Assembly: GCA_008080765.1 (NCBI GenBank)
Contig: SHMU01000001.1
Coordinates: 1,255 to 65,254 of the forward strand
Source of the DNA: Promethearchaeota archaeon
GTDB taxonomy: Archaea; Asgardarchaeota; Lokiarchaeia; Sigyniarchaeales; SOKP01
Length of the DNA stretch: 64,000 nt
Direction: 5' to 3'
The position numbers and the translations under genes were made by a program. Position 1 is the stretch's first letter, and every line of letters begins with the position of its first letter. Under the pieces are notes generated by a model that was not told the DNA's origin, searched no databases, and worked only from the letters and a program-made list of their open reading frames with translations. This document shows positions 3,529 through 56,644 of the stretch, one piece after another.

Positions 3529-3582
3529 GAGATCATAATATTCCACCGAAATTTGTTTTTTAAATCTTAATTCGGGGAGATA

Positions 3583-35997: not shown

Positions 35998-38900
35998 ATG
36001 ACGGAATTCACAGTCTATTACCTCCTTGAGTTCGATTTTTCAGGACATCACTACGGTATTGTAGAGTTTGGAAATACATCTATGCTCAATGAGACTTCAA
36101 TTCAATTTGAACTGCCTTTTGGATTCCTTCCTAATATTAGTGACTCCCGAGCGCCCTTGTATACTCAATTTAGCGAACAATTTTCGCCAGATGGAGATAC
36201 GTATCGACTTCATTATGGTCTATACGGAAGTAATGATCCTGATAGTATTATAATCTATAATCTAGACCAGTTAGAAGAACAATTTAAATCAGAAATCGAT
36301 GTTCTCTTCTCGGACGAGACTAATGAAGAGTATTATGAGATTGATGTTGTTTTTACCACTCCTCCAAATGAACCGTTTACCCTCAGCTACGGATTAAAGT
36401 CCGAATATTCCTTAGGTGCGGGCTTTCAAAAGATTGGAGAGCCTTACTCTGAAAGTACTCGGCTTATCTATACTGAAGAAGAGGCAGGACAGTCTAAGAT
36501 TTTTACAGATACCACTAATATTTTATCACCTTATTCCTTCTCTGAATCGGCATTATATATTTCATTAGATAAGCAAGATAATAAAGAGACCACTCTAACA
36601 ATTTTTGATGTGCCTTTGCTTTATTCTCCCTCTATTAATTTAACCTTTATTATAGATGAGTTAGGCAAGACAATGATCGACCAATATACCTCATTAGAGA
36701 ACATATTGACTATTGATTTTACATATATGGATTCCAATGAATTATACGAGTTTTCCTCACCCTCATTAGAATTGCAGTTAACACCTTCTCAGCTCAGCTC
36801 ATACGAACAAGGGAATTCTTATATTATCACATATGAACAAGACCTTCAAGCGCTTTATGAAATCTTGGGGATGGACAATATTGATATCTCAATTACAATC
36901 TCACAAGAAGGCGATGTAAATAATTTACCTTATCTCCTTATGACACAATACGGCTATCTAACCGATGAGTATATTATTGAGACTCATGATAGTATGCCTC
37001 TTGATGAGAATGGAGAGCCTGATTATGCGGCAATTACTACCACTCCACACTTTTATCAGATTACCTCTCAAGACCTTACAGAAGCACCATTCAATCTACT
37101 TAGCGACTCGCAGATCACTGTAGCACTTACCAATCTTTCTGAGACGGAATTAGTATCATTGAACAGCGATAACGGAAAAATTGATTTTATCTCACATGGA
37201 ACTAAGAAAACGTTTACCCTTTCCGAACAACAAGGGAATGCCGTACCGAATTTAGCATTATTTATCAACTGTTATGATATAGATATGCCGCAATATCAGG
37301 ACGGTTATTTAGATTTATATTATGGAAGTGGTACGGAAGTTGAAGGTGAAAAGCGCTCTACAAGCACCATAAGCATGACCGCAATTGGTACATGGCTTAA
37401 CTATCGTGCCAAGGTAGAGGATAATGTTATTTTGGGCTGGGACTCAACCTATGATTTTACGGACAAATTTTTAACAACGGATCGGATTACCGTATCGGGT
37501 AAAGTCTTTTATCACGCATTAGCAAATCTTTCTGAGAGCTCCGACGAATATCTTAATAAAATTCAAATGAAAGAGATTTTTGATAGTTATACCCGTGAAA
37601 TAGAATTCGGAATTCCCCTCCCCGAGCAATATGATATTGCAGATATTAGGGCAGTTGGACATCCGTATGAATATCATCTTAGCATCCAAGGATTTCCCGT
37701 AGAGTCTACGGATGAATATATGCAATATCTTGAAGCAGATGATCATGACAATTTCCCTGAGGATGAGTTTAACCAACCTACAAATCGTCTGCCTGACATC
37801 GATTTAGAGACGGGCAAGCTAAATTATGAGGTAGCAATTGACGAGAATGATTCTGCCTATCTTCTATTCTTTGTTCCGCTTACTACTATCTATGATTTAG
37901 GACTTTTAGATGGAAACGGTGATATCATGATCGATTTTCACGCTCATCAGACCTTTAGAGACGGGCAAGATTATTATATAAAAGAAAATTACGAAATTGA
38001 TGGTAATAATTATATCGAATGGGATTATACCTTAGTTTCAGGACATCCTTTTAAATTTCATCCTGATTTCAATGAAAATCATTACTTTACTGTAGAATAT
38101 TCAGCGTTAGAATGGAGTATTATGAAACAAATGTATATACACTATAAAACCGATTCATTCGTTTATCAACCCGAGACATTCCAAAATGTATCACTCTTTT
38201 ATCCGGGTGATGCCTCCATCGAAACTTTTGGGGTACGTAATACTATTCCCGAAGATCAACTTTTAGACGGTCATATCTTATTCCCAAGCGTTTATGTACT
38301 CACAGAGACTGATGAAAATAGTGATGAATATGAAGTACGACAGCTAAAAAATACTGCTATAGACTCAAAGCTTGTATATAAAACGCCCGATCCTTCCGAG
38401 CCGTGGAATTATACAATTGATTTTGAACAGATTGCTATCGCTTTAGCAGCGCAATATCCTGGAGAGCATTTGGTCAATCCCAGCTTTTTATCTGTGGAAG
38501 CGCATTATTATTCCGATCAATGGAGATATGAGCTTTCCAGCACACCGTTCAATTACGAATATCTTGAAAAAGATAGTAATTATCATCTAAAGCTTACTAT
38601 TAAAAATCCGGACGGTATTATTATCGATGAGAGATATTCCAATGAGACTGAAGAAATAGGACTAAATTATCATACTCAGGGGTTTGATACCTATGTGCAA
38701 GCTATTAGCAGTAATTATATTTACTTTAAAGAGGGTGTAATTGATAAAAACTCTACCATCGAGATTTCCTATCATTATAAGCTGCAACCCGGCTTACAAG
38801 AAAGAAAGCATTTTCTTATCTCAACGACTCCTTATACACAAGCTTTCAATACGGAATACTTACCAGGAGCTTCTAATAGTTCCAGTGCTATTTATAGAGA

Positions 38901-41900
38901 ACGCTACCGCAAACTAAGCGGAGGGTCGATAATAGCACCCTTCGATTATATGCTTTCCATCAATGAAACCTATAGTCTTTATCTTTCCTATCGTCTTAAT
39001 CAGCGAGACTATTTCCAGCATGAATATACAACCTCAGAAGGCGATTTAACGGGACTTGAGGGGTATCGTAAATTTGGGCTTCTCGATAGAAATCTACGGG
39101 ATACAGGTTTAGTGCGATTTGCGAAGGGGGCGGAAAAAGAATGTGTGAAAGTATATTTCTATAATTATCGTACTGATTTAGATTCGACATTCACCTCTAA
39201 AAAATATCCCTATATCGGGCTTTCTGAAGAGCAACAGATGCAACCGGTATACGGTACCACTCCTAAAATAGCTTTCTTAGATCCTTCTTTATATGAAGTA
39301 GATTCTCAGATGGTAGCAGTAAGTATTAAACAAGAAGCATTAGAATTAATCGAGCGAATGAATCCAAAAGACGATAAATTCTATATATCCTTTGTGCCTC
39401 AACCGCTTGATCTTGAATTATTAGCTTACAAGTTTCAATATCTCACTTCAGGAGATATTTTAGACTCATTAGACGTTCTTCATTGGGATGTACCAGAAAA
39501 GGACGATTTGGATGTATATCCCAATTTAGATGCTTATTATTATAAAGATAAAGAACTTTCCTCGATCGAACGAGTGGTATGTCATGCTTCTGAGCTTTCC
39601 ATATATCTGGAAGACGGACACTCTTTAGAGTTTGATGTAGAAGCCGAATTGCAAGCATACGATCCTGAGTTATTGAGTAAAATCCACGAAGGAAAATATG
39701 CTTCGATATTTATAAAAACTAATATTGAGAATTTAGAGAGCTTGGAGTCTTTACAAATACAACTTATTGATAAAGACGGGAATATATTAAACGATTATAC
39801 TCAGATAATATCTACGGAAGAGATTGATCTTAATGATTTTGAGTTACATATTAACTTACCTTCCTACGCAGATAACAAGTTAAAAATTATTAAATTCATT
39901 CCTATATTCCGCACTGACGATATTTATTCGTTAGAAAATAAAGTAGGTATATCTCAGTACGATCTAATTAAATGGGATGAAGAAGATGTGATAACTAATG
40001 AAACTTATCCATTCATGTTCTTTACATTAGAGACCAATCTTCAAATTAATGCTTCTCACGCGGGACGTGAATTTGCATATCTATTTAACAACAGATTAGA
40101 ACGTATTTATTTCCCAGAAGGAGTCTCCATCGAGTATACTAAAATATTCGATGATGATGGTAATCTTCTTCAATATGCATTAAAAATTCCGAAGGAGCAT
40201 ATTGATCCTCTAACAGGAGAAAATGCAACCTTCAGCAATGAAGATCTGCTTTTCTTGAAATATTATTCACCGGTGGAGCGTGCTATATCCTTAGGTATTG
40301 GGAAAATATATTTTGAACGAGCATTTGAAAATAATGAAAAATCGGAGTTCATGATGGTAAACGCCGAAAATCAGAATTACTTCTCTCAATTCGCCGAAAA
40401 TAACTTTGGCAGTGAAAATTACTGGTACGAGCAAGAGCTTCAAATCACTCCGTTCGATACGGAGCATACAGGAACCTTTAAGACCGCAAAATTGGATATT
40501 AATCTAAGTGCCTTAGAGGATGATGCCATTGACGGAAAAGTGCCCTTTAGCCATATTCTATTCACGGTGCCTCATCCATTATATGAACTGACTATTAACG
40601 AGATTCTCATCTTAAATCCCTCTCAAACTCACACTACCGAACACGGATCTACTTCGAGTAGATTATGGCAATATTCTGAAATTCAAGCATTTGCCGCAGG
40701 TAGTGACCCCGCTTACGATGAATATAAATTTAATTTTACTCAATCAGTTCCATTATTCTATAATGAATCGGATCCCGCCCAAGAATGGCTCAATTACATT
40801 AGAATTTTTGATGAGGATCAGAATTATTACTCGGTAGGGTTATTTGGTGATCAATATCAACTTCATTACGACCAAGAAAATAAATCGTTCTCGTGGAACC
40901 CCACTTTCAATCAATATCCTGTCTATTATGGCATGCAATTTGAAGAAGAATTGATGATCGATCCCAATCATACCCTTTATATCGAATATTGCTCCAATGA
41001 GTCGTGGAAAGAACCAATAGTTATTGAGGATGAAAATGTGGATCTTACTTCCATCTGGACCATCTACGATTTTATCCATACCTTACGCCCGCAATATTAC
41101 AATTGGTTTATTGACGAGCTCGGCTATGAAGATAATGAGTATTCATTAATGGATGATATTGATTATAATGTCACGCAATACCTCACCGAACAATTTACGG
41201 TGTATGATAACATTACAGAATATACTCATCAGTTCGATATAGGCAATTATTCCTTTACGGAAGATTATTTGAACTTAAGCCTCTCCCATGTAGTAGCGAT
41301 TACACCCGATTTTGAACAGATTCTTTTAAGCGATAATGAGAATTATACGATTACCTTTAATGCGGAAGGGAAGAATATCACCATCGAATCACTTCATCCT
41401 TATTCATATTTGAACGAATTTGATACAATTTCCGTGGTTCTTAACTTTAGCAGAGGTCCTATTAATTCGTTTACAGAACTGTACTTGACGGAAGACTTCT
41501 TTACGTCTCAACTCAACTATAGTGATGATCTCACTTCTACCTTTTATGACACCATCAATATCTATTATGAGACATTCTCTCAAGGATTTGACGGGGAAAT
41601 ATTATTCATGGAGAGCTCCTCTATTATCACCAGCGAGGATACTCTCTTTACTCCCATTAGCTACAGCTCGTTTAATGCTATTACTGATCAGCGATGGGTG
41701 TTAATGAATTATTATTCAGGAAATTTTGATAATTTCAAACTTTATTATGATGATTCTTCCATTTTCTATCAAGCGGATATCGATCAAGACGGTAAAATTG
41801 ACTTTAAGCATACACTCGATATTGATCGGGACGGAAAAATGGATATCATTCGCTATGGAGAAGAATCAAATAATGGGGAAATTATCTGGTATACGATTAT

Positions 41901-44900
41901 CCAAGCCTATGAAAGAATAGACTCAGAAGAGACTCATGAAATGGAGGACAAAAAGGAGACCAAATGGTTCGATATCAATGACAAAAATTTTGCCAATTAT
42001 GAATTTAATATTGCTGAATTATTCGGTGTGTGTCTTACAGGAGGCTTATTATTACCATATACGCTTGCTTCGATGATGATGCCTATAATGGATTATTATG
42101 CCATGAAAACTCTTCAAGAAGAGGTAATTAGGGACGAAACTATAGAATCTACCTATTATAGCATTAAAACCGATTATGATCGCGACGGATTACCAGATTA
42201 TCAAATGGATTATGAATCATATAAGAACGTGGTACAATATGAAGTCACGGAACATCATAAGACTCTCATTGCCGCCAAATATCAAGATGTTTTTATGTTC
42301 CTAACAGTATGGGTCGCAAAAAATATCGCTTCATTGGCTAATGAGCCCGTATATGATTTTGTGTTTAACGATTTTCTTACCGAATATCATCTTGACCATT
42401 GGGACTTTCGAGGGCTTCCACCCACAACACTTGCTCAACTTCCATTTATTTTATCTACCTATCGTAAGTATTATTGGGATATGACCAGCGAATATACCGA
42501 TAGTTTTACTTACGAACAGATAAAGATTATCGAATATGATGATCAAGGAGAGATTTCAGAATCAAGAATTTATAAAGATGATTTTAGAAACGATGAGATT
42601 GGGAATGTAGCTCAATTCTTATCCAATTTAATCGAGGAACACCGTGTCACGAATGTAGAGACCGGTGAACAACTTAGCATATCCTTTAATCCTAATCTTC
42701 CTTTCTCACGACCTGAAGATATTGATTGGGAATGCGAAGTATGGGGAGTCGATGGAGTTCCCATTAAATTTGACTCTCTTACCGTATTAGGCGGTGATGG
42801 ATTAGAGGTTATCGATGAGACTAATGTATATCAACAGGAAATTATCATTAGAATTCCTAATCGCTATTCTCTGTATAACGATTTTAGAAAGACAGCAATC
42901 TGGCAGGTCGCGAACATGGGATTTGCCGATTTTAAAGTGGAAGGAATTTTAGTCACTCCGCAAGACGGGAAGGTCTATATTACCAGCGATATGATCTGTC
43001 TTGCATGGGGAGTCGGGAAAGTGCCCGGCAAATATTTCTATGTAGACTCTACAGGAAATGGTTTTTATGATACTGTCTATATTGTAGCTGCTACACCTAC
43101 AGACACTTCAGGAACTCCCACGTATAAGGTCTTAGCCATCGGCTATAATTATGACGGAATCCACGATTTCAAGCCCTACGAGAAGATTTATCCGAAATCC
43201 CGCATTGAGTCCAATTTCTGGATGATGGCAATTCAGACCAATCGATTTGATGTCCATTGGACTTATCAATACGGCAACCTTATCCGAGAACCATTGTTAT
43301 GGCCCACCTTAGAAAGCCTCATTTGGAATTATTTCAAACCCGCCGATCACATTTTTGAGATTTGGAAGTCTACCGCCTTAGATTGGAACGGCAAATCTCT
43401 TCTTTATCATTACATAGAGACCACGAAATATTATGAAGCATGGTTCCAATATGGTACGCAATATTATGAAGACTTCTTTGAACAGACTTTTATGGGTACG
43501 GTGTCTTCGGCGCTAAGTGTCTTCACACAAATATCTGTCCAAATATCTTTTGGAATACTTAATGTTTTCGGCGCTGCAGCAATCGAGCGTATTGCCAACG
43601 CCGCCGGATCTGCAATATTTATTCTTACTTATACCTTAATGACCAAATTTTTCATGGATATAGACCGTCATGAAGTAATGTCAAAACAGAGAGCCTATAC
43701 CTATTATCCGTCAAAATATATCTTCAAGTTCGATCCTCAAAGTATGAACGAAAAATGCCTATATGATAAGCTGCTTGGAGATAGTATGGCGACTGCTCTG
43801 CTTGGGCATTACGGCGCATATTACACCACCGCAGTGGGCGAGTCAGAAGGATTTCAAGTAACCGCTGAGGTGATGGTTACTCCTCCTAATTATGCCAGAA
43901 TGATGACCGGCTGGCAAGGATTCTTCGAATTTTTAGGAATGAATTTAATCGCACCCGGTTCCCATCCCGCAATATATTACGGTTTAACGTTTGATCAGAT
44001 GAATTTAGATTGGTATGCTCTTACCAGCGAATTGCCTTTATATACGAGCCCCTTCCTTCTTTTCTTAAACAGTATGCTTTTCGGACCATATTATATGTAT
44101 CGTCAAAATACTCTGGGCGCGGTAGAGACTATTACCATGCTAAGAACCTTAAATCACCTAAACACGATTCAAGCCACCTCCATCGGCGGCGATCCCCGTT
44201 ATAGATTAGTAAATAGATATGAAGCACCTTACAATAGAATTTTACCTGAAAAAGGGTTATACTCTCCCGTAGTATTAAGTCCCGAATGGAATCAATATGC
44301 AGGCAATATAAAGGGAATGATGTATATTTGGGCTTTATGTCATGATTTCCCCTCAACAGTTGGATTAGGCTCCGAAAACACACTCACCGAGGTGGAAAAA
44401 CTCAAATATAAAGCGAAATTCATTATTAATCCTAATGGGTTCGAATATCCAATAGAATCCATTCAGATCAGTCTCATGCAACAAAATAAGAGAGGAGGTA
44501 TTTTTGCCAGCTCTGAGAATCTTATTAGCAATATTCAAGTACAAGAAGAAGATTTTGAAGTGATTGACGGTACCATCTATTTCACTAAGACATTAGATGA
44601 AATTGTCGCCGAACAATATAAAGGATACGAAGAATTACTTGCAGGAATCGATCCCGAGCAATATTTACTACATTATGGTATTAATATTATCTTTTCATTG
44701 ACTATTCCAGATACCAATAACGAGACCCATAAACTAGCACTTGCGCAAGCAACTCAGTTTGCGGTAATGGATTATTTCAATCAATACGTGCAAGCTCAGA
44801 CAATTGCTCAAATAAAATCCGAGATTGCCTATACGGAAACCTTAACATTCTGGTCTACTATCATGACCACCGCTCTTAGTTATTTCGGAGGCTGGGGTGC

Positions 44901-47900
44901 CACAGGAACCGGAAGCGCTATTGCAGAAGTAGGGGCCGAGGTAGGAAAGGAAGGCGTAAAGATCATTGCCAAGGAAGTCTTGAAACAAGTTCTTAAGGTT
45001 GTCTTAAAGACTATCTATGAAGCAATGAAGGAGGTACTTCAAGAAGTTATTCTTGATGCTTTCATAGAAGCATTAGCTGAAGGCTATTTCGTGGAGATCT
45101 TAGGCATGAGCGAGGATGCGGGCTTCTGGATCTCTTCGCTTGCAACATCCCTTCGAGAAGCGGGCTTAGGACCGTTCAAACTAATGCGTAAAGGACTTAC
45201 TTCGGTAATGTCATCTATCAGCACTAATTTAGATCTGCATTTAAATCTAGACAGTATTTTCTTTAAGAACTCTAAAAATCATATTAAGGACTTACAGAAT
45301 AGCCTTAAGAATGCAGTGGAAGCAGATAACTTCATTGACCAAGCTAAGCTTAAGGAAGAGATTCGACAAGCTGAGACGGAGCTCGCCCTTAAGCAGAATA
45401 AACTGAATTTGATTAAGAATATATTCAAAGGAATTATCATGCTCTCCTTAAGTTTCAAATTCTTCGGATTTGGATTTATAGGAGCTAAAAGTCTATTAGA
45501 TATTGGGACTTCAATCTCCTCTTATTACGATAATAAGGCTGAAATTAATACGATTTCTCATGTTATGAGGTCTGAAAACCTCCAGTTTGCCTATGAAAGC
45601 TCCATAACTAATTTAAAAAGAGGGTTGTCTCAAGACATCTATGATCAATATGCGAATACGAAACCTCATGATCTCAGGCAACTTGAAAACAAGATAGAAC
45701 TCTCATATGCACAACAACAAAGCAACGATTTCAAGACTATTGACAGCTGTTTTGACCCAAACCGCGTTGAGAAAATAAGTCCACCTAAAACTCCGGACAA
45801 TATTGATCTCCGAACCGCGAAAGAAGCGAACGCGATGACCCCCATAGAAAAATACGTCGATAGTTTCTTTTTTAAGGACCTTCTCAACACATTCCCCGAA
45901 TTAGAAGCATTACGCCCACGTTTTGAATCTATCGTAGAATGGGTTTCAAAGATTTATAACTTAGACTTTTTAGAGAAAGCAAGACAGAATCAAGAAGCTT
46001 CAGAGAAAAAACAAGCAACCGAAAGTAATGAAAATACAATAATCGTAGCCAATTTCATCTCTAAGGAAACAACGCCTTCAGAATATAGATCGGCTGCTTA
46101 TACTTTCAGGTTATCTGGCGCCCCTCATGATTTAGCAATAAGAGAGATTCAGTTAGATCCCACTCTTACCATTGAGGAAATTAAGACAAAAGTGAGAGAA
46201 GAATACAATCTTGAGTTTACAGAAATTCACCTTCTTTTTAATGGCAAATACTTACCAAATCATCTTAGATTTTCCGAACTTGGAATTAATCCTCAAATGG
46301 ATGTAATCACGGTAATGGCCACGCAAGAAGCAGCTGGAAGAAATGTTGCGGCGAAAATATTTGCAAATAAAATAAAAGATTTGATTTCTAATAATGAAAT
46401 CAATAAAGAGGTTGCAAATAGATTAGTAGCAATATTAAATAACGATAAAAACAATTGGAATTTTGAAAAAGAAACTCTTGATAAATTCCCCAAGCTAAAA
46501 GATTTAGCAGAGGAGATAGCTCGAAAAGTAGCGGATGGAGAAAGCCCACAATTTAGTCCAGAACCAATATGTATAGGGCCACTTCTCAGCGTTGACGAAT
46601 CAACATATCGTCGTTGGCTAGATTCTAGTACGTTTTTGTCTTTACAAACATTTGAAACCATAGAATATATTATTGACACCTTTTATAGTGGCACTACATT
46701 CGGGAATCAAATGAATGAACTATTACAAGATTATGAAATGAGGAATTTGTTAATGCATGGTTCACGCCTTTTTGCCTCTAGTTCTAGTATTTCCAGCATT
46801 TTAATTATGGAGTTGGAACGACTTATCACTTATAAAAACGAGAAAACGGGTACCGATTATGAAATGATTATTATTTCTCATTTAAAAAGCGCCTCAGAAC
46901 ATAAAGAATTTTTAAGCGAATATGTTATTGAAAACTTATATGGAATAGAACAATTTAAAAGAAGTAATGATGGTCGTCTACAGCGATATGTTATGGCGTA
47001 TCTTTTGGGTGTCTCTCAAGCGTCTATAACTAGATGGATGTACGGGGAATTTGATATTTCTCAAAGTTCTTTTATAACTTTTGATAATAGAATTCAAGAG
47101 TTATTTGGAAACTTAATCGAGAACGAAGGCTCGTTATATAATTTTTATTTAGAATTTAAAAATCTTATCGGTAATACACCTCAAGATCGATGTTCAAAAA
47201 CCGTTCGTGATCAACTATTACATTATTTAAAAGAGGGTGAGAAAAAGTACGGACCTTTTAGTAATTTTAGGGCTGATAAAGCGACTAGAGCCGAGATTTC
47301 AGAGAAAAATATAGAACTTTTCGGATATGCAAAGTTATTTAGTGTTGATGCCCTCATAAATAGTGCTTTAAAAGATTTATTGCAGAATAAAGACTTTTTA
47401 GACAATGAAGTCTCTGATGCTTTGGAAAAAGGGTTTCCAGGAGAGGGCAGAAAACAATTGGAGGGCTTAAAATGTTTTATAGAAGAAGATATTGAGAGAG
47501 CGGTAAAGACATTCAGATATTTATTATTCGGTCTTGCAGATACTTCTCTACAAAAGATTATGACTGGGGCAGAAAAATGCCACCTTAAAGTTCATTGTAC
47601 CTTAGAAAAGTTTCTTAGAATGGTTTATGAGAGCATGCAATACTCTAGTGATTTTCAAGTTATTGATAGTGGTCCATCTATGATACTTATGCCTACTACA
47701 TGTATCCAAACAAGATTAGATAAAGACGGAAATGTAATATTGGATAAAAATGGAGTTCCCATGATATGCGGTGAGAAAGGTTTTTATTTAGCTAAAGATC
47801 TTATAAGTGGAAGAGCTGTTTGCTATAAGCATATTATGCGCTGGAACGAGCAAATAACTGCTGCCTTTTTCACTTATTATACTGGAATAGAGTTAAGTAA

Positions 47901-48612
47901 ACCTCAAATAGAAGTATACGCATCTACTTTAAATTTTGGCGAAATATTCGCCCATATTTCAAATTGTAGATATGACATACTAGTAAGCAAAGAGACGGGT
48001 ATAAAATTAACTGCGGGTGATATTGCCAAGGGGTTATCAAGATTGGGTATTATTAATAATGAACCTCAATGGTTAATAAATATATATGAGAATGAAATTG
48101 GTATTAATATTGAAACGGATGGTGAACAACATGATAATTTTTGGGTATGGTTAAGACTTCAACGATTAGAGGGTGCTGACTTAGCTGATCAAATTGACGT
48201 GATATTGGAGACTCTCGACCCGATGGGTATTAAAATCGGAGATAAGCTTCAAGAATTAACACTCTCTCAAATACAGTCCTACATCAATATGGTTCAAGAA
48301 GATGCAAAACGATTTTTACTGGAGGAATATCGTAGGTGGGAACACTATCGTGATAATGATCAAGATAAACAAAATGCAATTGAAGAAAAGGCTCATTGGT
48401 ATCAAATGAGGATCCCAATATACGGTTGGTTTGAAAATGTCGACAATCGATTTTTCTTATTCTCTATGCAATTTTTAGAAATTCTTGCTAAGGAAGCCGG
48501 AAAAATCGAGGAAGGAGGAAGTCTTAACACTGAATTATTGGAGGAATTAGGATTTAATTGGGATCATTCGGCACATTTTGGACGATATAAAGAGTTTTTC
48601 CTTGATTTATAA
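35998..48612 (+). CDS. giant ORF 2 (4204 aa as called); same frame as ORF 1, probably its continuation
   Basis: Positions 35998 and 16825 are both 1 mod 3. Only TAG (35944..35946) plus 17 sense codons separate the two ORFs. No SD upstream of the ATG. Contains DxDxDG motifs, a TM cluster and a tail with Ubl, HTH and nuclease-like motifs. Confidence 0.8.
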   Translation: MTEFTVYYLLEFDFSGHHYGIVEFGNTSMLNETSIQFELPFGFLPNISDSRAPLYTQFSEQFSPDGDTYRLHYGLYGSNDPDSIIIYNLDQLEEQFKSEIDVLFSDETNEEYYEIDVVFTTPPNEPFTLSYGLKSEYSLGAGFQKIGEPYSESTRLIYTEEEAGQSKIFTDTTNILSPYSFSESALYISLDKQDNKETTLTIFDVPLLYSPSINLTFIIDELGKTMIDQYTSLENILTIDFTYMDSNELYEFSSPSLELQLTPSQLSSYEQGNSYIITYEQDLQALYEILGMDNIDISITISQEGDVNNLPYLLMTQYGYLTDEYIIETHDSMPLDENGEPDYAAITTTPHFYQITSQDLTEAPFNLLSDSQITVALTNLSETELVSLNSDNGKIDFISHGTKKTFTLSEQQGNAVPNLALFINCYDIDMPQYQDGYLDLYYGSGTEVEGEKRSTSTISMTAIGTWLNYRAKVEDNVILGWDSTYDFTDKFLTTDRITVSGKVFYHALANLSESSDEYLNKIQMKEIFDSYTREIEFGIPLPEQYDIADIRAVGHPYEYHLSIQGFPVESTDEYMQYLEADDHDNFPEDEFNQPTNRLPDIDLETGKLNYEVAIDENDSAYLLFFVPLTTIYDLGLLDGNGDIMIDFHAHQTFRDGQDYYIKENYEIDGNNYIEWDYTLVSGHPFKFHPDFNENHYFTVEYSALEWSIMKQMYIHYKTDSFVYQPETFQNVSLFYPGDASIETFGVRNTIPEDQLLDGHILFPSVYVLTETDENSDEYEVRQLKNTAIDSKLVYKTPDPSEPWNYTIDFEQIAIALAAQYPGEHLVNPSFLSVEAHYYSDQWRYELSSTPFNYEYLEKDSNYHLKLTIKNPDGIIIDERYSNETEEIGLNYHTQGFDTYVQAISSNYIYFKEGVIDKNSTIEISYHYKLQPGLQERKHFLISTTPYTQAFNTEYLPGASNSSSAIYRERYRKLSGGSIIAPFDYMLSINETYSLYLSYRLNQRDYFQHEYTTSEGDLTGLEGYRKFGLLDRNLRDTGLVRFAKGAEKECVKVYFYNYRTDLDSTFTSKKYPYIGLSEEQQMQPVYGTTPKIAFLDPSLYEVDSQMVAVSIKQEALELIERMNPKDDKFYISFVPQPLDLELLAYKFQYLTSGDILDSLDVLHWDVPEKDDLDVYPNLDAYYYKDKELSSIERVVCHASELSIYLEDGHSLEFDVEAELQAYDPELLSKIHEGKYASIFIKTNIENLESLESLQIQLIDKDGNILNDYTQIISTEEIDLNDFELHINLPSYADNKLKIIKFIPIFRTDDIYSLENKVGISQYDLIKWDEEDVITNETYPFMFFTLETNLQINASHAGREFAYLFNNRLERIYFPEGVSIEYTKIFDDDGNLLQYALKIPKEHIDPLTGENATFSNEDLLFLKYYSPVERAISLGIGKIYFERAFENNEKSEFMMVNAENQNYFSQFAENNFGSENYWYEQELQITPFDTEHTGTFKTAKLDINLSALEDDAIDGKVPFSHILFTVPHPLYELTINEILILNPSQTHTTEHGSTSSRLWQYSEIQAFAAGSDPAYDEYKFNFTQSVPLFYNESDPAQEWLNYIRIFDEDQNYYSVGLFGDQYQLHYDQENKSFSWNPTFNQYPVYYGMQFEEELMIDPNHTLYIEYCSNESWKEPIVIEDENVDLTSIWTIYDFIHTLRPQYYNWFIDELGYEDNEYSLMDDIDYNVTQYLTEQFTVYDNITEYTHQFDIGNYSFTEDYLNLSLSHVVAITPDFEQILLSDNENYTITFNAEGKNITIESLHPYSYLNEFDTISVVLNFSRGPINSFTELYLTEDFFTSQLNYSDDLTSTFYDTINIYYETFSQGFDGEILFMESSSIITSEDTLFTPISYSSFNAITDQRWVLMNYYSGNFDNFKLYYDDSSIFYQADIDQDGKIDFKHTLDIDRDGKMDIIRYGEESNNGEIIWYTIIQAYERIDSEETHEMEDKKETKWFDINDKNFANYEFNIAELFGVCLTGGLLLPYTLASMMMPIMDYYAMKTLQEEVIRDETIESTYYSIKTDYDRDGLPDYQMDYESYKNVVQYEVTEHHKTLIAAKYQDVFMFLTVWVAKNIASLANEPVYDFVFNDFLTEYHLDHWDFRGLPPTTLAQLPFILSTYRKYYWDMTSEYTDSFTYEQIKIIEYDDQGEISESRIYKDDFRNDEIGNVAQFLSNLIEEHRVTNVETGEQLSISFNPNLPFSRPEDIDWECEVWGVDGVPIKFDSLTVLGGDGLEVIDETNVYQQEIIIRIPNRYSLYNDFRKTAIWQVANMGFADFKVEGILVTPQDGKVYITSDMICLAWGVGKVPGKYFYVDSTGNGFYDTVYIVAATPTDTSGTPTYKVLAIGYNYDGIHDFKPYEKIYPKSRIESNFWMMAIQTNRFDVHWTYQYGNLIREPLLWPTLESLIWNYFKPADHIFEIWKSTALDWNGKSLLYHYIETTKYYEAWFQYGTQYYEDFFEQTFMGTVSSALSVFTQISVQISFGILNVFGAAAIERIANAAGSAIFILTYTLMTKFFMDIDRHEVMSKQRAYTYYPSKYIFKFDPQSMNEKCLYDKLLGDSMATALLGHYGAYYTTAVGESEGFQVTAEVMVTPPNYARMMTGWQGFFEFLGMNLIAPGSHPAIYYGLTFDQMNLDWYALTSELPLYTSPFLLFLNSMLFGPYYMYRQNTLGAVETITMLRTLNHLNTIQATSIGGDPRYRLVNRYEAPYNRILPEKGLYSPVVLSPEWNQYAGNIKGMMYIWALCHDFPSTVGLGSENTLTEVEKLKYKAKFIINPNGFEYPIESIQISLMQQNKRGGIFASSENLISNIQVQEEDFEVIDGTIYFTKTLDEIVAEQYKGYEELLAGIDPEQYLLHYGINIIFSLTIPDTNNETHKLALAQATQFAVMDYFNQYVQAQTIAQIKSEIAYTETLTFWSTIMTTALSYFGGWGATGTGSAIAEVGAEVGKEGVKIIAKEVLKQVLKVVLKTIYEAMKEVLQEVILDAFIEALAEGYFVEILGMSEDAGFWISSLATSLREAGLGPFKLMRKGLTSVMSSISTNLDLHLNLDSIFFKNSKNHIKDLQNSLKNAVEADNFIDQAKLKEEIRQAETELALKQNKLNLIKNIFKGIIMLSLSFKFFGFGFIGAKSLLDIGTSISSYYDNKAEINTISHVMRSENLQFAYESSITNLKRGLSQDIYDQYANTKPHDLRQLENKIELSYAQQQSNDFKTIDSCFDPNRVEKISPPKTPDNIDLRTAKEANAMTPIEKYVDSFFFKDLLNTFPELEALRPRFESIVEWVSKIYNLDFLEKARQNQEASEKKQATESNENTIIVANFISKETTPSEYRSAAYTFRLSGAPHDLAIREIQLDPTLTIEEIKTKVREEYNLEFTEIHLLFNGKYLPNHLRFSELGINPQMDVITVMATQEAAGRNVAAKIFANKIKDLISNNEINKEVANRLVAILNNDKNNWNFEKETLDKFPKLKDLAEEIARKVADGESPQFSPEPICIGPLLSVDESTYRRWLDSSTFLSLQTFETIEYIIDTFYSGTTFGNQMNELLQDYEMRNLLMHGSRLFASSSSISSILIMELERLITYKNEKTGTDYEMIIISHLKSASEHKEFLSEYVIENLYGIEQFKRSNDGRLQRYVMAYLLGVSQASITRWMYGEFDISQSSFITFDNRIQELFGNLIENEGSLYNFYLEFKNLIGNTPQDRCSKTVRDQLLHYLKEGEKKYGPFSNFRADKATRAEISEKNIELFGYAKLFSVDALINSALKDLLQNKDFLDNEVSDALEKGFPGEGRKQLEGLKCFIEEDIERAVKTFRYLLFGLADTSLQKIMTGAEKCHLKVHCTLEKFLRMVYESMQYSSDFQVIDSGPSMILMPTTCIQTRLDKDGNVILDKNGVPMICGEKGFYLAKDLISGRAVCYKHIMRWNEQITAAFFTYYTGIELSKPQIEVYASTLNFGEIFAHISNCRYDILVSKETGIKLTAGDIAKGLSRLGIINNEPQWLINIYENEIGINIETDGEQHDNFWVWLRLQRLEGADLADQIDVILETLDPMGIKIGDKLQELTLSQIQSYINMVQEDAKRFLLEEYRRWEHYRDNDQDKQNAIEEKAHWYQMRIPIYGWFENVDNRFFLFSMQFLEILAKEAGKIEEGGSLNTELLEELGFNWDHSAHFGRYKEFFLDL
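41773..41860 (+). other. paired DxDxDG calcium-binding-type motifs (FG-GAP/EF-hand-like)
   Basis: ADIDQDGKIDFKHTLDIDRDGKMDIIRYG. Related single motifs: DYDRDGLPDY (42172..42201), YVDSTGNGFYDTVY (43039..43080), and in ORF 1 VFDINHDGISEIIRL (19801..19845). Confidence 0.5.
42004..45500 (+). other. membrane-spanning region of the giant protein (about 5-6 hydrophobic helices separated by large loops)
   Basis: Hydrophobic stretches at 42004..42090 (FNIAELFGVCLTGGLLLPYTLASMMMPIM), 43489..43656 (two helices), 44842..44910 and 45430..45500. A weaker one lies near 42289..42340. An amphipathic/coiled-coil segment spans 44920..45425. Confidence 0.55.
46099..46320 (+). other. ubiquitin-like (beta-grasp) domain embedded in the tail
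   Basis: LDPTLTIEEIKTKVREEYNLEFTEIHLLFNGKYLPNHLRFSELGINPQMDVITVM aligns without gaps to ubiquitin [55 protein letters not shown]. About 15 of 55 positions are identical by eye. No C-terminal GG. Confidence 0.55.
46981..47070 (+). other. XRE/Cro-type helix-turn-helix-like motif
   Basis: QRYVMAYLLGVSQASITRWMYGEFDIS matches the l-gvSq-sIsrwe-G pattern. A weaker similar segment (SVDESTYRRWLDSS) lies at about 46590..46630. Confidence 0.45.
47960..48430 (+). other. PD-(D/E)XK (Vsr/DUF559-like) nuclease-like motifs at the C-terminal end
   Basis: CRYDILVSKETG ... IGINIETDGEQHDNF ... HYRDNDQDKQNAIEEKAHWYQMRIPIYGW resembles the y-fDf-v ... iaiEyDGeqH ... rD--K ------ gi-lirIpy layout, with long insertions. 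Confidence 0.35.
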
Positions 48613-48722: not shown

Positions 48723-49247
48723 ATGTATAAAAAATATTTGTATTGTTTTTTTAACAACATTTTAGAGTTTGATAAGGCTCTCTCGGCTGTGACTAGTTAT
48801 CGCTTCCTAATATTCCAAAGTTATTTCCTCTTATTAAAGTCGATTCAATGCAATGATACAACCATAACCGCCACGCCAGAGCAGCCTCTATTTGGATTCT
48901 GCGTCTCCATCAGTAAATCCTTTCCCGAAAAACGCTCCCCAGAGGAGGTGGACAAGGATGTTGAAAAGGTTTGCAATTGGGAGTTTTTTACCGACAAATC
49001 GAGAGGGAATTTCATCTGCACAATGGAAGCGATAGAGAATTATTTCGCTTCTAAATACCCATATCCCAGCCCTTTAAAACAAGATTTTGCAAATTATTTT
49101 GATACCGCCAGCAAAGTAATAAAATACGCCTATGAAAAGGGCATTTTTACTATGGACTCTATTCCCGACGACTTTAAATCTGCTATTAAGGCTGCCATTA
49201 AACTGGGTTCTTTTCCTGTTATTGATATGGACAAGCTTGCTACATAA
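48723..49247 (+). CDS. hypothetical protein, 174 aa (orphan directly downstream of the giant ORF)
   Basis: ORF track only; no recognisable motif. The true start may be internal. Last gene of the inserted block. Confidence 0.4.
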   Translation: MYKKYLYCFFNNILEFDKALSAVTSYRFLIFQSYFLLLKSIQCNDTTITATPEQPLFGFCVSISKSFPEKRSPEEVDKDVEKVCNWEFFTDKSRGNFICTMEAIENYFASKYPYPSPLKQDFANYFDTASKVIKYAYEKGIFTMDSIPDDFKSAIKAAIKLGSFPVIDMDKLAT

Positions 49248-49648: not shown

Positions 49649-50050
49649 TTACTTTTTTAGATTATTTTGTATAAAGTCAATGATTTGGGAAGTCATAGTG
49701 CCGGGACCGTAGACGTTTGCCACACCCATAGCCTTTAGTTCTTTAAAATCCTGGGCTGGAATGACTCCTCCTATCAATACCATAAACTCATCTTTTACCC
49801 CCTTTTCCTCTAATTTATCCATGAGCTTTTTAACCCAATTTTTATGCGCGCCCGAATGTATACTAAGTCCTATAATATCCACATCTTCATGAATAGCAGT
49901 TTCCACTATTTGGTCAATATTTTGAAATCCACCAAAAATTAATTCCATACCAGCATCACGTAATGCTCTTGAGACCACTATACCTCCTCGCCAATGACCA
50001 TCTATACCGGGTTTTGACATCAATACCCTAATTTTCTTTTCTTGTTGCAT
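49649..50050 (-). CDS. methylmalonyl-CoA mutase small subunit (B12-binding domain)
   Basis: KIRVLMSKPGIDGHWRGG (DxHxxG B12-binding motif), IIGLSIHSGAH and VLIGGVIP. Start taken at MQQEKK (50050), 17 nt after the large-subunit stop. Confidence 0.9.
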   Translation of the reverse strand: MQQEKKIRVLMSKPGIDGHWRGGIVVSRALRDAGMELIFGGFQNIDQIVETAIHEDVDIIGLSIHSGAHKNWVKKLMDKLEEKGVKDEFMVLIGGVIPAQDFKELKAMGVANVYGPGTMTSQIIDFIQNNLKK

Positions 50051-50067
50051 ATCTCTCACCTGAAATC

Positions 50068-51729
50068 TTAAATTGCTAAAGGTGGCTCCCAAATTCCATA
50101 AATTTCTCTATAAATATCGCATATCTCTCCGACTGTTGCACCTTCTTTGGTAGCCTCCATCATTACAGGCATAACATTCTCCTCTTTTTCAAGGACTTTT
50201 CGGAGTTTATCAAAGATCGACTCTAATTTGGCATTATCACGTTTTTTCTTCAGCGTTTTGATTCGCTCCACTTCAATCTTCATCGCTTCCTCATTTGTGC
50301 GAAATACATCAGTCACATCATCGTATGGAACAGGATATTTATTAACCCCAATACTTATCTCCTCTCCTTTTTCCATTCGTCTCTGGCGTTTATGAAAAGC
50401 ATCTCGCATTTCTTTATATAACCACCCAGTTGAAAGTGCTTTGTCTATCGAACCAGTTCTTTCGATTTCCTCAATATAATCCCATACACGCTCTTCGATC
50501 TCATCAGTAAGCCATTCTACATAATAGGAACCTGCTAAGGGATCTACAGTGTTTACTATACGCGTCTCATCAGAGATCACTTGCTGTGTGCGAAGGGCAA
50601 TTAAAGCAGCCTCCTTTGAGGGAAGACATATTGCTTCATCATAGGAATTTGTATGTAAAGATTGACATCCTCCTAATGTGGCTTCTAATGCTTGGATCGT
50701 AGTCCTGATAATATTTATTTTGGGTAATTGTGCAGTTAAAGAACTTCCGGCGGTTTGTACATGAAATCTAAATTGCATGGAGCGGGGATCTTGAGCATCG
50801 TAGCGATCTTTCATTAATTTCGCCCATATCCTTCTTGCCGCTCTATATTTTGCGATCTCTTCAAAAAAATCCTTATGTGCAGATAAATGAAAAGCTAGTC
50901 GATTTACAAAATCATCTACCGTCCAGCCCCTGGCGATTATATTCTCAATATGAGAACAAGCACTTGCAAAGACAAAACCTAATTCTTGAACGGCATCTAT
51001 TCCTCCTTCCCGATAATTATATCCAGTAAAATTTATAGGATGCCATTTAGGAACATTACCCATAGGTACTGTCCATTCAATAAAATCGCATGCCAATCGA
51101 AGCAAATGATTTGGAGGTACATTTTTATAGGGAATATATCCCACCGTCATGGTCAAAATATCATTTTGAGTGGTTCCCATTAAATTTCGAATGTCATAGC
51201 CTTTCATTTTTGCCATATTGAAATACATCGAGCATACGGGAGCTGAAGTAAAGGGTTCTACAACGAGCGCAACACTGATTTTGTCAATAGGGATATCTTT
51301 GGTAAGCGCAAACATGCTATCTATACAGTATAAGGGCACTCCAGATGTCCCAACTTCTGCTGCACCATCCTCATTTGTAGGGTCAATTCCATTAAAGGTT
51401 AGTGCATCAACCGCTGCGCTAAAACCTGTCTCTCCATGTTTATATAAAAACTTCCATCGCTCATTCGTTTCTTCGGGAGTACCATGTCCCGAAAATAAAC
51501 GCATCGTCCATACACGCCCTCTATACATGTTGGGATAAGGTCCTCGAGTATATGGAGGCTGTCCTGGAAATCCTACCTTTTCTGTATATTCTCCCTTCAC
51601 ATCTAAAGGGGTATATAAACGTTTCACGGGGATTCCAGAATCGGTTTTAAACTCAATATCTCGCTCGCGAGCCTTTTCAAATTTCTTTTCCCAATTTTCT
51701 CGTTCTCTCTTAATTTTCTCAACGTCCAT
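50068..51729 (-). CDS. methylmalonyl-CoA mutase large (catalytic) subunit
   Basis: FPGQPPYTRGPYPNMYRGRVWTMRLFSGHG, FSAAVDALT, HVQTAGSSLTAQ and NIIRTTIQALEATLGG are canonical MCM blocks. Start at MDVEKIK (51729). Confidence 0.9.
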   Translation of the reverse strand: MDVEKIKRERENWEKKFEKARERDIEFKTDSGIPVKRLYTPLDVKGEYTEKVGFPGQPPYTRGPYPNMYRGRVWTMRLFSGHGTPEETNERWKFLYKHGETGFSAAVDALTFNGIDPTNEDGAAEVGTSGVPLYCIDSMFALTKDIPIDKISVALVVEPFTSAPVCSMYFNMAKMKGYDIRNLMGTTQNDILTMTVGYIPYKNVPPNHLLRLACDFIEWTVPMGNVPKWHPINFTGYNYREGGIDAVQELGFVFASACSHIENIIARGWTVDDFVNRLAFHLSAHKDFFEEIAKYRAARRIWAKLMKDRYDAQDPRSMQFRFHVQTAGSSLTAQLPKINIIRTTIQALEATLGGCQSLHTNSYDEAICLPSKEAALIALRTQQVISDETRIVNTVDPLAGSYYVEWLTDEIEERVWDYIEEIERTGSIDKALSTGWLYKEMRDAFHKRQRRMEKGEEISIGVNKYPVPYDDVTDVFRTNEEAMKIEVERIKTLKKKRDNAKLESIFDKLRKVLEKEENVMPVMMEATKEGATVGEICDIYREIYGIWEPPLAI

Positions 51730-54874: not shown

Positions 54875-56644
54875 ATGAAAATCACAAAAAAAACTGCATT
54901 CGCTTTAATGACTTCATTGATACTAGTATCTTTGTTCGCCACTTTTCCCGCTTCTTCGGGTGCACAAATTCCTTATCCACTTGCCGCTTCATCTATCCAA
55001 TCTTCACAAGAGTCTTTAAGCATTAAAGAAGAGTTCACAACTCGATTTGGGCATTATGTTGACGAGCCGTATTGGTCAATTATTTTTGATTTTGCAGGAG
55101 AAAAATTAGTCGAAGATTTCAACCCCGGTCCTTATAGTGGGGATGTTATTGGAGGTGAAGGAGAGACTGATAATGATACTCAAACAGATGCGAATTTCTA
55201 TATGGGATGGAATAATTTACAAAATGTTCATACCTATTATTTTGCTCTACAAAACTATACGTGGAATAGTACAGATCCAATAGCCTATGGTTGTGCTCCA
55301 TATCAATATTTCTTTCAACATTTTAATATTCCAACAACTAAGACTCATGTATTTACTTTAAATAAGTTTTTAGGTTTATTAGCATACCAAGATAACTTCA
55401 CTGCGGGGAATCAAACAATACCAGACGAAACAGACGAATTATATATAGGATGGACTCAATTTGGAGAATTCCATAAATTTATTATTAATTATATATTTAA
55501 TGTGTCTACTACTCCTGTTGATCCCTGGTTTCTTATTGACGAATCTAAGCAAGCTACAGCCACACCAATTGCAATGAATGAAACCTCTCCCGGAATATAC
55601 GAATTTGGAATTTCATACCAAAATATTTTTGTTCTCTGGCAAAAGCTAGAAGTCGAACAAGGATTAGGGTATGATAGTGTAGAATTGAGCCAAATTGTAA
55701 ACAATTGTAGCGCATTTGGTATGTTCTCAAGTATTAATTTTACTTTCCAAATTTCAAGCAGAAATGTAGGAGGATATCTTGAAGTAAATACCACTACTGA
55801 ATATGATATTGGAGAATTAGATGCATTATGGATTATGAATGAAAATGGTACTGATGTAAGTCCATTTGGAGGAGATAATTTTACTGTATCAATCCCCGGA
55901 GAAGGAAGTGTAGATATTGGATACTACAATACAAGCAGTTCTATCGCAAGTAGATTGGATGGAAATGAAAGTTTATCAGTTCCTGGGTTTGGACTTGCTG
56001 TTATCAATTCAGCAAACATCGCTGTAGTGAAAATGAAAAGCTTTACGCTATTTGGAATTGAATGGTTCCAATATCCGGATACTGAAGCATCTGGACTTGA
56101 AAACTTTACCGATCAAGCGGGAAATCCATTAGGAGAAGTCACAACAAATATAACTGAGGCGGGATATAACCAGTCTGGTATCAGAGTGTTTACTATAGAT
56201 TTTGCTTCAAAACCTAATTATACTCTGAATGGAACGGAAGAATTAGAAGCTCCCTCATTAGTATTGGCAAATGATCAAGTACTTACAGAGAATATTACTG
56301 GAATTTTTGATGAAGCTGCATTGCTCTCTACACTCTATTTTATTATAGCAGCAGCGGGTAATCCCATAACTGGTGTTTTTACTGGTATTGAAGTTATCAG
56401 ACAATTTATGGAAAATAGGTTCTACTATTTGACATGCTTTCCAAAATGGAGCGGGGCAACCATCAATCAAGATCCTACGTTCTCTGTGTTTGTACCTCCC
56501 AGCACTCCTGATTTTCCTTTGGAACTTCTTGGCGGAGACGGAGGTGGAGGCTTTCCTGTATGGATACTCCCAATTGTCTTTGGTGTCGGTATTGTGAGTG
56601 CTGCGGTAATTGGTATCATAATTTGGAGAAAGAAACGCAAATAA
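54875..56644 (+). CDS. surface glycoprotein-like protein, paralog A (589 aa): signal peptide, sequon-rich ectodomain, C-terminal TM plus basic tail
   Basis: MKITKKTAFALMTSLILVSLFATFPASSGA. 19 N-x-S/T sequons by hand count. C-terminus GGGGFPVWILPIVFGVGIVSAAVIGIIIWRKKRK. About half the residues are identical to paralog B in alignable blocks. Confidence 0.75.
   Translation: MKITKKTAFALMTSLILVSLFATFPASSGAQIPYPLAASSIQSSQESLSIKEEFTTRFGHYVDEPYWSIIFDFAGEKLVEDFNPGPYSGDVIGGEGETDNDTQTDANFYMGWNNLQNVHTYYFALQNYTWNSTDPIAYGCAPYQYFFQHFNIPTTKTHVFTLNKFLGLLAYQDNFTAGNQTIPDETDELYIGWTQFGEFHKFIINYIFNVSTTPVDPWFLIDESKQATATPIAMNETSPGIYEFGISYQNIFVLWQKLEVEQGLGYDSVELSQIVNNCSAFGMFSSINFTFQISSRNVGGYLEVNTTTEYDIGELDALWIMNENGTDVSPFGGDNFTVSIPGEGSVDIGYYNTSSSIASRLDGNESLSVPGFGLAVINSANIAVVKMKSFTLFGIEWFQYPDTEASGLENFTDQAGNPLGEVTTNITEAGYNQSGIRVFTIDFASKPNYTLNGTEELEAPSLVLANDQVLTENITGIFDEAALLSTLYFIIAAAGNPITGVFTGIEVIRQFMENRFYYLTCFPKWSGATINQDPTFSVFVPPSTPDFPLELLGGDGGGGFPVWILPIVFGVGIVSAAVIGIIIWRKKRK

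Follow-up and report, generated by a model that had tools for sequence, protein, structure and literature searches.

Background

Ubiquitin signalling counts among the hallmarks of eukaryotes, and it is largely via the Asgard archaea that its roots in prokaryotes have been traced. The present work concerns a ubiquitin-like (Ubl) domain encoded in a 64,000-nucleotide stretch of DNA from Promethearchaeota archaeon (GenBank assembly GCA_008080765.1, contig SHMU01000001.1, positions 1,255 to 65,254 of the forward strand), referred to as the window in the following. The domain is part of a giant protein of 4,204 amino acids (aa).

Several described Ubl arrangements are available for comparison. The UBL domains of the Get5 and RAD23 type are not conjugated and dock a larger protein onto a partner. 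In ubiquitin-fusion precursors (polyubiquitin and ubiquitin-ribosomal protein fusions) as well as in the ciliate Ubl-Hint 'BUBL' genes, a Ubl is joined to the domain that comes next. EccD and YukD of type VII secretion are prokaryotic Ubl folds which are integral to a membrane machinery and are not conjugated. An inspection of the DNA letters alone, here called the sequence-only reading, had considered Ubl domains inside large membrane proteins unusual in prokaryotes; this is right in part, the EccD/YukD machinery being a place where they also occur.

Caldiarchaeum subterraneum carries ubiquitin, E1, E2, RING and Rpn11 components, with homologues in Asgard archaea. In such archaeal ubiquitin-operon systems Rpn11 processes the ubiquitin precursor (PMC5654768, PMC6043591). 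With respect to the wider locus, the closest descriptions are those of polymorphic toxin systems (CdiA-CT, Rhs) with orphan C-terminal (CT)/immunity cassettes (Zhang et al. 2012, PMC3482391) and of the aloposons of Heimdallarchaeum with their tandem giant genes Otus and Ephialtes (Wu et al. 2022, PMC8813620). The Ubl of the window differs both from a free modifier encoded in an E1/E2 operon and from a part of a soluble adaptor in that it stands at the head of a swappable module of a giant protein.

Sequence analysis of the domain

Translation of 46099-46320 in frame 1 (+), in frame within the 12.6-kb open reading frame (ORF) 35998-48612, gives YTFRLSGAPHDLAIREIQLDPTLTIEEIKTKVREEYNLEFTEIHLLFNGKYLPNHLRFSELGINPQMDVITVMA (residues 3368-3441). 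The sequence-only reading had counted about 15 of 55 positions identical to ubiquitin by eye, which was accurate: a gapless alignment to residues 17-72 of human ubiquitin has 14 identities in 56 positions and a BLOSUM62 score of 63. No shuffled sequence in 100,000 equalled the observed score or identity, and the next-best 56-mer from the six-frame translation of the window scored 20.

The Pfam family PF00240 (ubiquitin), with a curated gathering cut-off of 25.4 bits, matched at 29.9 bits (E 4.7e-7) when the whole protein was searched and at 36.1 bits (E 5.7e-9) on an excerpt. Weaker matches at the Ubl came from the same clan (Rad60-SLD, Ubiquitin_5, Dsc3_N), and no YukD-type profile was found among the matches of the giant protein to Pfam at E <= 1. 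A phmmer search against the PDB gave 5e-5 for the RAD23 UBL and 4e-4 for the Get5/Mdy2 UBL, compared to about 0.01 for single ubiquitin; in sequence, the UBLs of Get5/UBL4A and RAD23 are the nearest relatives. The ubiquitin positions K27, K29, F45, G47, K48, L50, S57, I61 and V70 have identical equivalents in the domain, and I44 is replaced by Leu; core positions in the gapless alignment correspond to L3413, F3414, G3416, K3417, L3419 and V3439 of the giant protein. A hidden Markov model (HMM) of the family described below, built from 62 rows with the window sequence among them, gave E 5e-31 at the Ubl and 0.3 or worse elsewhere, which makes this the only such domain in the window. All features tested place the domain in the ubiquitin family (PF00240).

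The domain ends in VMATQEAAGR (VMATQEAAGRNVAA at the domain end) and is followed by 757 residues. There is no Gly-Gly; the motif ATQEAAG keeps one glycine, placed one position further out than in GG, and judged from these letters the di-glycine is degenerate. As far as the encoded protein goes, the sequence-only reading was right that the Ubl is integral and lacks a terminal Gly-Gly.

On the opposite strand, an ORF at 46293-46679 (-) of 128 aa that starts with GTG overlaps the sequence coding for the end of the Ubl and is probably just a side effect of the long ORF on the sense strand.

Structure prediction

AlphaFold2 produced a poor model from an alignment of two sequences (pLDDT 56), and the run with the 62-sequence family alignment was used instead (pLDDT 89.7, pTM 0.76). 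The elements follow each other as beta1, a short helix, beta2, alpha1, beta3, a beta4 bridge, a 3(10) turn and beta5. When the model was compared to the PDB using Foldseek, the top matches were all of the ubiquitin fold, namely ubiquitin, 6fnn_C (the Caldiarchaeum ubiquitin in complex with its Rpn11), the Get5 UBL, NEDD8, ISG15 and SUMO-like domains; E was about 5e-5, the probability 1.0, TM 0.7-0.78 (0.72-0.78 for ubiquitin, NEDD8 and the Caldiarchaeum ubiquitin) and rmsd 2.0-2.3 A. As modelled, the Ubl takes a beta-grasp fold which is superposable on ubiquitin. The beta-grasp domain proposed by the sequence-only reading, together with the profile and structure searches that it suggested as checks, has accordingly held up: the Pfam score is above the cut-off, and the confident model matches ubiquitin.

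The Asgard Ubl family

One homologue, P0001 (43% identity, 98% coverage), came from a word-index search with the 905-aa tail of the giant protein; the same search with the 91-aa Ubl alone returned no candidate. An exhaustive HMMER search with a tail profile made from these two sequences (window and P0001) found 118 proteins, most of which match in the Ubl region only. Family members scored between E 1e-27 and 1e-10 with this profile, compared to about 1e-6 for polyubiquitins, and were recovered by phmmer with the window Ubl alone as well. Identity between the window Ubl and family members, free ones included, is 25-55%. From these similarities the window Ubl is placed as a descendant of a Ubl family found across Asgard lineages.

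The family consensus is xxYRFRLTGVPPDQAIKxIxVDPNQxVAEIKKxVQxxYKLNPILAIQFIFKGKVLPDxLKFxKIGIHPKKDVITVMATQAGG, seen in family members as the blocks xxYRFRLTGVPPDQAIK...FIFKGKVLPD...KDVITVMATQAGG, and the signature of the family is YRFRLTGVPPDQ...ATQAGG. When the family profile was searched against the PDB, the Get5/Mdy2 UBL (9e-10) and the RAD23B UBL (9e-9) came before single ubiquitin (about 3e-5). Many members score below the PF00240 cut-off, and the NCBIfam match of the family is to the Rad23 N-terminal region only.

The presence of Gly-Gly was counted in 87 complete domains among representatives at 50% identity. It is present in 44, at most 6 residues from the protein end in 27 of them and followed by more than 30 residues in 14. 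The remaining 43 lack it, and 16 of those are long fusions. Long C-terminal fusions are thereby divided into 14 of 30 with GG and 16 of 30 without, the latter with recurrent AGSAP or AAAG variants.

The Ubl is the N-terminal module ahead of many unrelated effector-like domains, and the fusion partners are diverse. They include a second Ubl in tandem (P0004) and zinc-ribbon plus nuclease-like modules (P0074). In P0070 the Ubl is followed by GG, a Cys and an intein/Hint N-terminal motif (weak NCBIfam support), P0054 has an E2/UEV-like domain on the N-terminal side of the Ubl (UQ_con, E 0.005), and P0079, as read by eye, may carry the Ubl fused to a GIY-YIG-like stretch. The family thus has three forms, namely free proteins with GG at the end, fusions in which GG leads into effector-like domains or an intein-like motif, and integral domains without GG.

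When genomes were scanned with the core alignment, 149 relatives were confirmed; 80 listed loci (L002-L081) are the basis of the counts that follow. By label, 64 of the listed loci are Asgard (Promethearchaeota/-ia, Hod-, Hermod-, Thor- and Odinarchaeota), 15 are 'uncultured archaeon' and 1 is a Nanopelagicaceae bacterium. Identity to the query across the 80 is about 70%, and the free Ubl protein, with its roughly 83 aa, is therefore highly conserved among the Asgard lineages. In 73 of the 80, the core Ubl gene has as its neighbour a winged-helix-like gene (about 370 aa) that is transcribed divergently from it.

In one listed locus, L042, the free Ubl gene at 9990-10249 has no ATG, GTG or TTG start (frame stop-stop-KITQYRF..., end QAGGV-stop).

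No relatives were found in scans of viral contigs with the tail and with the core Ubl, which speaks neither for nor against a viral origin, nor in scans of metagenome contigs with the linker plus Ubl and with the C-terminal module. We found no published description of the Asgard Ubl family or its fusions in an incomplete literature search, and this is absence of evidence only.

The giant body and the breakpoint

The giant body has several hydrophobic segments resembling transmembrane (TM) helices. For the region containing them (residues 2380-3300) 15 homologues were found, mostly fragments from Loki's Castle or JGI data. BLASTP alignments of the 15 stop at window residues 2763-3306, and at 3060-3306 in those bearing a tail; most stop just past the last strongly hydrophobic segment. 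The tails of these homologues, 87-761 aa long, have nothing in common with the last 984 residues of the window protein.

One homologue, P0122, is similar to the window through the linker up to about residue 3306, beyond which it has a different tail, and we therefore place the breakpoint between body and cassette at about that residue. Because the linker of P0122 is contiguous with its giant body, in-frame tails are considered normal in the giant family. P0003 begins at the KPHDL boundary, has 49% identity with the window across linker and Ubl, and retains the Ubl and the helix after it, followed by a related but divergent tail. P0121, a relative with 70% identity, ends in ...TKTPRSQAT-stop / ...QYENTKTPRSQAT-stop, and the alternative frame of the window at about 45640-45700 reads SQAT-stop; P0121 is for this reason taken to be frameshifted exactly at the junction between body and linker, which may reflect a split of the gene, an error in sequencing or a programmed event. 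The GC content at third codon positions (GC3) is 0.274 in the linker plus cassette (from nucleotide 45640) versus 0.346 in the upstream body.

The Ubl had also been considered as a general feature of the giant family. This was dropped, as the family HMM found nothing significant on the 15 body homologues; ThiS- or Ubl-like stretches noticed by eye in the tails of P0123 and P0131 were likewise unsupported by the HMM.

The exchangeable C-terminal cassette

According to the alignments, the Ubl is part of a C-terminal cassette, about 900 aa long and variable, and not of the conserved giant body. The order within the cassette is leader, Ubl, helical region with helix-turn-helix (HTH) character, zinc-ribbon-like stretch and putative nuclease-like domain. 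The Ubl is the first folded domain and begins about 60 residues past the breakpoint.

P0122 and P0001 are from the same JGI sample. The 3' end of the giant gene encoding P0122 (locus L082) and the stand-alone cassette encoding P0001 (locus L001), both in one metagenome, have 151 bp in common at 96% identity. This segment ends exactly at the first codons of P0001, and upstream of it L001 has stops in all frames. The evidence for an orphan cassette comes from this one locus. At the site equivalent to AAG|R of the window, P0001 has LAGG|AD, and P0003 and P0050 have AAAG.

Two Cro/XRE-like HTH look-alikes are located at about 46570-46677 and 46990-47094 in the helical middle region, with sub-threshold Pfam matches only; the JGI name of P0001 is 'XRE-family HTH' regulator. 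The C-terminal module aligns with P0001, P0002, P0013, P0021, P0074, P0109 and P0118. Most of the aligned modules have CxxC...CxxC in the zinc-ribbon stretch, where the window has C, C, C, H, and the invariant columns are T, D, E-x-x-G-x-x-H, W and D (motif D...E-x-D-G-x-Q-H...W...N-D, with ETDGEQH at 48112-48132). We take these columns to resemble those of Vsr/DUF559-type PD-(D/E)xK nucleases, and the module is a putative PD-(D/E)xK/Vsr-like nuclease by its motifs. No significant match to it was obtained in Pfam, the PDB, NCBIfam or PADLOC; profile searches of the PDB and Pfam gave weak zinc-ribbon matches (DUF4379, Zn_ribbon_8) and one to DUF2726 at E 0.056.

The 174-aa product of the small gene downstream is 42% identical (E 1e-38) to the product of the gene after P0001 in L001, and since it is conserved behind a stand-alone cassette, we consider the gene to travel with the cassette. 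Its product is a candidate partner or immunity protein. In L001, P0001 is followed by this small gene (3171-3641) and then by P0002 (3760-4827, 355 aa), which consists of the C-terminal module only. P0002 is 59-60% identical to the C-terminal module of the window versus about 40% to that of P0001 itself, which suggests an orphan cassette fragment and shuffling of sub-domains. The coordinates of all features are given in Table 1.

Table 1. Positions in the window of the Ubl domain, the parts of the cassette and the genes that contain or adjoin them.
Feature	Position	Strand	Residues and remarks
Ubiquitin-family beta-grasp domain	46093..46338	+	residues 3366-3447
Pfam PF00240 (ubiquitin) match	46147..46326	+	residues 3384-3443; profile positions 13-71 of 72
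Ubl C-terminal tail ATQEAAG	46318..46338	+	family consensus ATQAGG; P0001 HTLAGG
Modelled elements			beta1 3367-3372, beta2 3381-3385, alpha1 3392-3402, beta3 3409-3414, 3(10) 3425-3428, beta5 3436-3442; model residue 1 = 3366
Last strongly hydrophobic TM-like segment	45430..45486	+	residues 3145-3163, GIIMLSLSFKFFGFGFIGA
Linker	45658..45915	+	residues ~3221-3306, KPHDLRQLE...FPELEALRPRFE; common to P0122 and P0003
Cassette leader	45916..46092	+	residues ~3307-3365, low-complexity helical; aligns with P0001 N-terminus
Helical middle region	46339..47661	+	residues 3448-3888, ~440 residues
C-terminal module	47662..48609	+	residues 3889-4204, 316 residues; Cys/His zinc-ribbon-like stretch, then invariant-column domain
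Small downstream gene	48723..49247	+	174 aa, no recognised family
Giant ORF	35998..48612	+	4,204 aa; TXT67761.1, 'hypothetical protein BAJALOKI1v1_10024'; holds the Ubl, residues 3366-3447
Second giant ORF	16825-35946	+	6,373 aa, directly upstream of the 4,204-aa ORF, in tandem

Genomic setting

The product of the 4,204-aa ORF has an exact match at NCBI, TXT67761.1 of the Lokiarchaeota (Promethearchaeota) metagenome-assembled genome (MAG) BAJALOKI1, and on this basis the organism is an Asgard archaeon. The added interest that the sequence-only reading attached to an Asgard-related source, which it regarded as unproven, is thereby justified. The window is AT-rich (about 35% GC). Besides the giant genes it contains metabolic genes for a thiolase with a DUF35-type protein, methylmalonyl-CoA mutase, MeaB, acyl-CoA dehydrogenase and electron transfer flavoprotein (ETF). 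Scans of the window for tRNA genes and Rfam families were empty.

The 6,373-aa protein has two LamG-like domains, Ig-like domains and one CBM96 match, and BLAST found no similarity between it and the 4,204-aa protein. Together with the 174-aa gene, both giant genes make up an island, about 33 kb long, that lies between the MeaB and methylmalonyl-CoA mutase genes. On its left flank, 16363-16539 (-) encodes a 59-aa remnant of the C-terminus of a B12-binding subunit; it has 69% identity with the C-terminus encoded by the intact right-flank gene at 49649-50092 (-) (tblastn E 2e-27). The island looks like an element which has integrated into the 3' end of the gene for the B12-binding subunit and brought a replacement end with it. 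No integrase, tRNA or flanking direct DNA repeats were found around the island.

Elsewhere in the window, two paralogues at 54875-56644 (+), 589 aa, and 57010-58737 (+), 575 aa, share 50% identity from end to end; both have hydrophobic signal-like N-termini and no Pfam family, and lie between etfB-like and etfA-like genes. A small ORF at the window edge, 66-455 (+), has a match to the restriction endonuclease family Mrr_cat (26.8 bits).

Discussion

The domain agrees with the description of a type-2 UBL, being embedded in a larger polypeptide (residues 3366-3447 of 4,204) and having no di-glycine. What characterises a type-1, conjugatable modifier is absent: there is no C-terminal Gly-Gly, and no E1, E2, E3 or JAMM gene was found in the window. 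Because Gly-Gly is replaced by Ala-Ala-Gly and the position is internal, we infer that the Ubl is not a conjugatable modifier. Our favoured explanation, to which we give about an even chance, is that it serves as an integral, non-conjugated handle on an exchangeable effector. The Ubl would stay attached and work as a type-2 handle, coupling the tethered effector module to a partner that recognises Ubl domains; this could be a processing protease, a segregase or proteasome, or a partner specific to the cassette. Such coupling would control the activity, turnover or release of the effector module.

A number of points weigh against this explanation. No candidate partner was found: genes for E1, E2, JAMM, proteasome or Cdc48 were not seen within the window, where no ORF of at least 100 aa matches ThiF, UQ_con, RING or JAB, and across the 80 listed loci no E1, E2 or JAMM gene is conserved at up to 6 kb from the core family gene. 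The giant-associated subtype comprises three sequences only (window, P0001, P0003). The nuclease and HTH assignments of the supposed effector come from motifs and sub-threshold matches. The Ubl is presumably cytoplasmic; by eye, no N-terminal signal peptide was seen in the giant protein, and the positive-inside reading was ambiguous. Finally, the closest cassette homologue, P0001, keeps GG, as do 14 of the 30 long fusions, which is hard to explain unless those copies are processed. With P0001 (LAGG) and about half of the family retaining Gly-Gly, the integral state may be recent.

These retained di-glycines are the reason to weigh a cleavable release tag as the main rival, a possible explanation to which we give clearly less weight than an even chance. 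The Ubl would act in the manner of ubiquitin in fusion precursors. A Ubl protease, JAMM/Rpn11-like or a cysteine protease, would cut after the C-terminal glycine (AAG|R); equally tentatively, the HTH/nuclease-like module of about 760 residues would be freed and a membrane-anchored giant ending in the Ubl left behind. The family consensus QAGG, the 14 representatives in which GG is followed by long and diverse C-terminal domains, LAGG|AD of P0001 at the equivalent site and the autoprocessing arrangement of P0070, with its GG-Cys-intein/Hint motif, are all in favour, and the glycine is kept even where GG is not, in the window (AAG) and in P0003 and P0050 (AAAG). Precursor processing by an archaeal Rpn11 is described in PMC6043591. 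On the other hand, the window itself and 16 of the 30 long fusions have no GG, no protease gene was found nearby within the window, and cleavage after Ala-Ala-Gly would be without tested precedent in the family. A wider version, in which a dedicated domain of the ubiquitin family serves Asgard archaea as a 'release tag' that is portable and sits N-terminally on exchangeable effector cassettes, we consider doubtful. Here the cut after the C-terminal glycine would be made by a Ubl protease or a fused Hint domain, freeing a DNA-binding, nuclease-like module from a membrane-anchored giant protein, and the Ubl remaining at the C-terminus of the giant protein might itself be conjugated.

The Ubl could also be a passive remnant, a domesticated beta-grasp acting as a folding or spacer domain or as a contact within the cassette, with no link to Ubl recognition. 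Beta-grasp domains are common as scaffolds, GG is lost, no ubiquitin-system genes were found within the window, and the helix after the Ubl is conserved alongside it in the window, P0001 and P0003, suggesting an intramolecular unit. We find this unlikely, as the equivalents of the core ubiquitin positions (K27, K29, I44, F45, G47, K48, L50, S57, I61, V70) are retained, identity to free family members is still 25-55%, and the recurrence of the Ubl before many unrelated effector-like domains points to a portable function. Still less probable is that the domain is not truly embedded, the cassette being normally a separate gene and the 4,204-aa ORF a recent fusion, a read-through or an assembly artefact. 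The in-frame stops before P0001 separate at least this copy from any giant ORF, P0003 begins at the KPHDL boundary, and P0121 is frameshifted at the junction; against this, the ORF of the window runs uninterrupted across the junction and was deposited as one protein, the tail of P0122 is in frame with its body so that fused tails are normal in the family, and the 151-bp piece of the giant gene in L001 fits an orphan cassette rather than an independent gene family. A chance resemblance to ubiquitin without a beta-grasp, to which one might be led by the E of only about 0.01 for single ubiquitin chains (phmmer against the PDB), has a negligible probability. It is refuted by the PF00240 score, the AlphaFold2 model (pLDDT 89.7, TM about 0.75 to ubiquitin), the Foldseek matches and the shuffles, and more than 100 family members were recovered.

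The ubiquitin family (PF00240), to which the window domain belongs, is already known. New relative to the literature found are an Asgard Ubl family with GG-fusions, a Ubl heading an exchangeable cassette, and a giant Lokiarchaeal host protein. If the GG-fused forms are processed, ubiquitin-fusion processing and the Ubl-controlled release of tethered factors would pre-date eukaryotes. The release tag, if true, would foreshadow in prokaryotes both the processing of ubiquitin fusions and the ubiquitin-dependent release of factors tethered to membranes.

Comparison with known systems

Compared to eukaryotic ubiquitin and PF00240, the window Ubl has the same beta-grasp topology and a score above the family cut-off. 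It differs in being about 25% identical, with a beta1-beta2 loop two residues longer, and in being internal to a 4,204-aa protein without Gly-Gly. The UBLs of Get5/Mdy2/UBL4A and RAD23 are the best single-domain sequence matches for both the window and the family profile; theirs, however, are N-terminal in a soluble adaptor, whereas the window Ubl comes after 3,365 residues in which TM-like segments are present, and no Sgt2-like or proteasome-receptor-like partner is known for it. The Caldiarchaeum system and its Asgard homologues are similar in having archaeal ubiquitin folds, the Caldiarchaeum ubiquitin (6fnn_C) being among the top structural matches. Identity to that protein is about 17%, and unlike in Caldiarchaeum there is no operon context at the window or at the core family gene.

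The fusion precursors and BUBL genes are resembled by the many family members in which Ubl-GG is followed by another domain, and by P0070 with its Ubl-GG-Cys-Hint-like order. The window differs from them by having AAG and not GG, and by a giant protein preceding the Ubl, which is not N-terminal. From EccD and YukD the domain is set apart by the lack of a YukD-type Pfam match at E <= 1, and by being an archaeal domain of the ubiquitin family proper.

The aloposons, with tandem giant genes of 3,000-6,000 aa, are similar in this arrangement, the two proteins in the window having 6,373 and 4,204 aa, and in that the island was apparently inserted in a host gene. They differ in being integrated at a tRNA gene and in having an upstream block of four genes with MinD/ParA; the window has no tRNA gene, and upstream of its giant genes lies MeaB on the opposite strand.

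Polymorphic toxins have in common with the wider locus a conserved large body, unrelated C-terminal modules and a sharp breakpoint, as well as a stand-alone cassette with a short piece of the upstream gene, a small accompanying gene and a putative C-terminal nuclease. On the other side, a Ubl pre-toxin module is not described in the survey PMC3482391, no toxin or immunity family was recognised and no delivery apparatus identified for the locus, and the tail of the giant protein, which comes after hydrophobic segments, appears to be intracellular. As toxin, immunity and delivery are putative features only, we do not class the locus as a polymorphic toxin system, which it resembles in layout. 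The locus points to cassette exchange in Asgard giant genes, in a manner that resembles polymorphic toxins.

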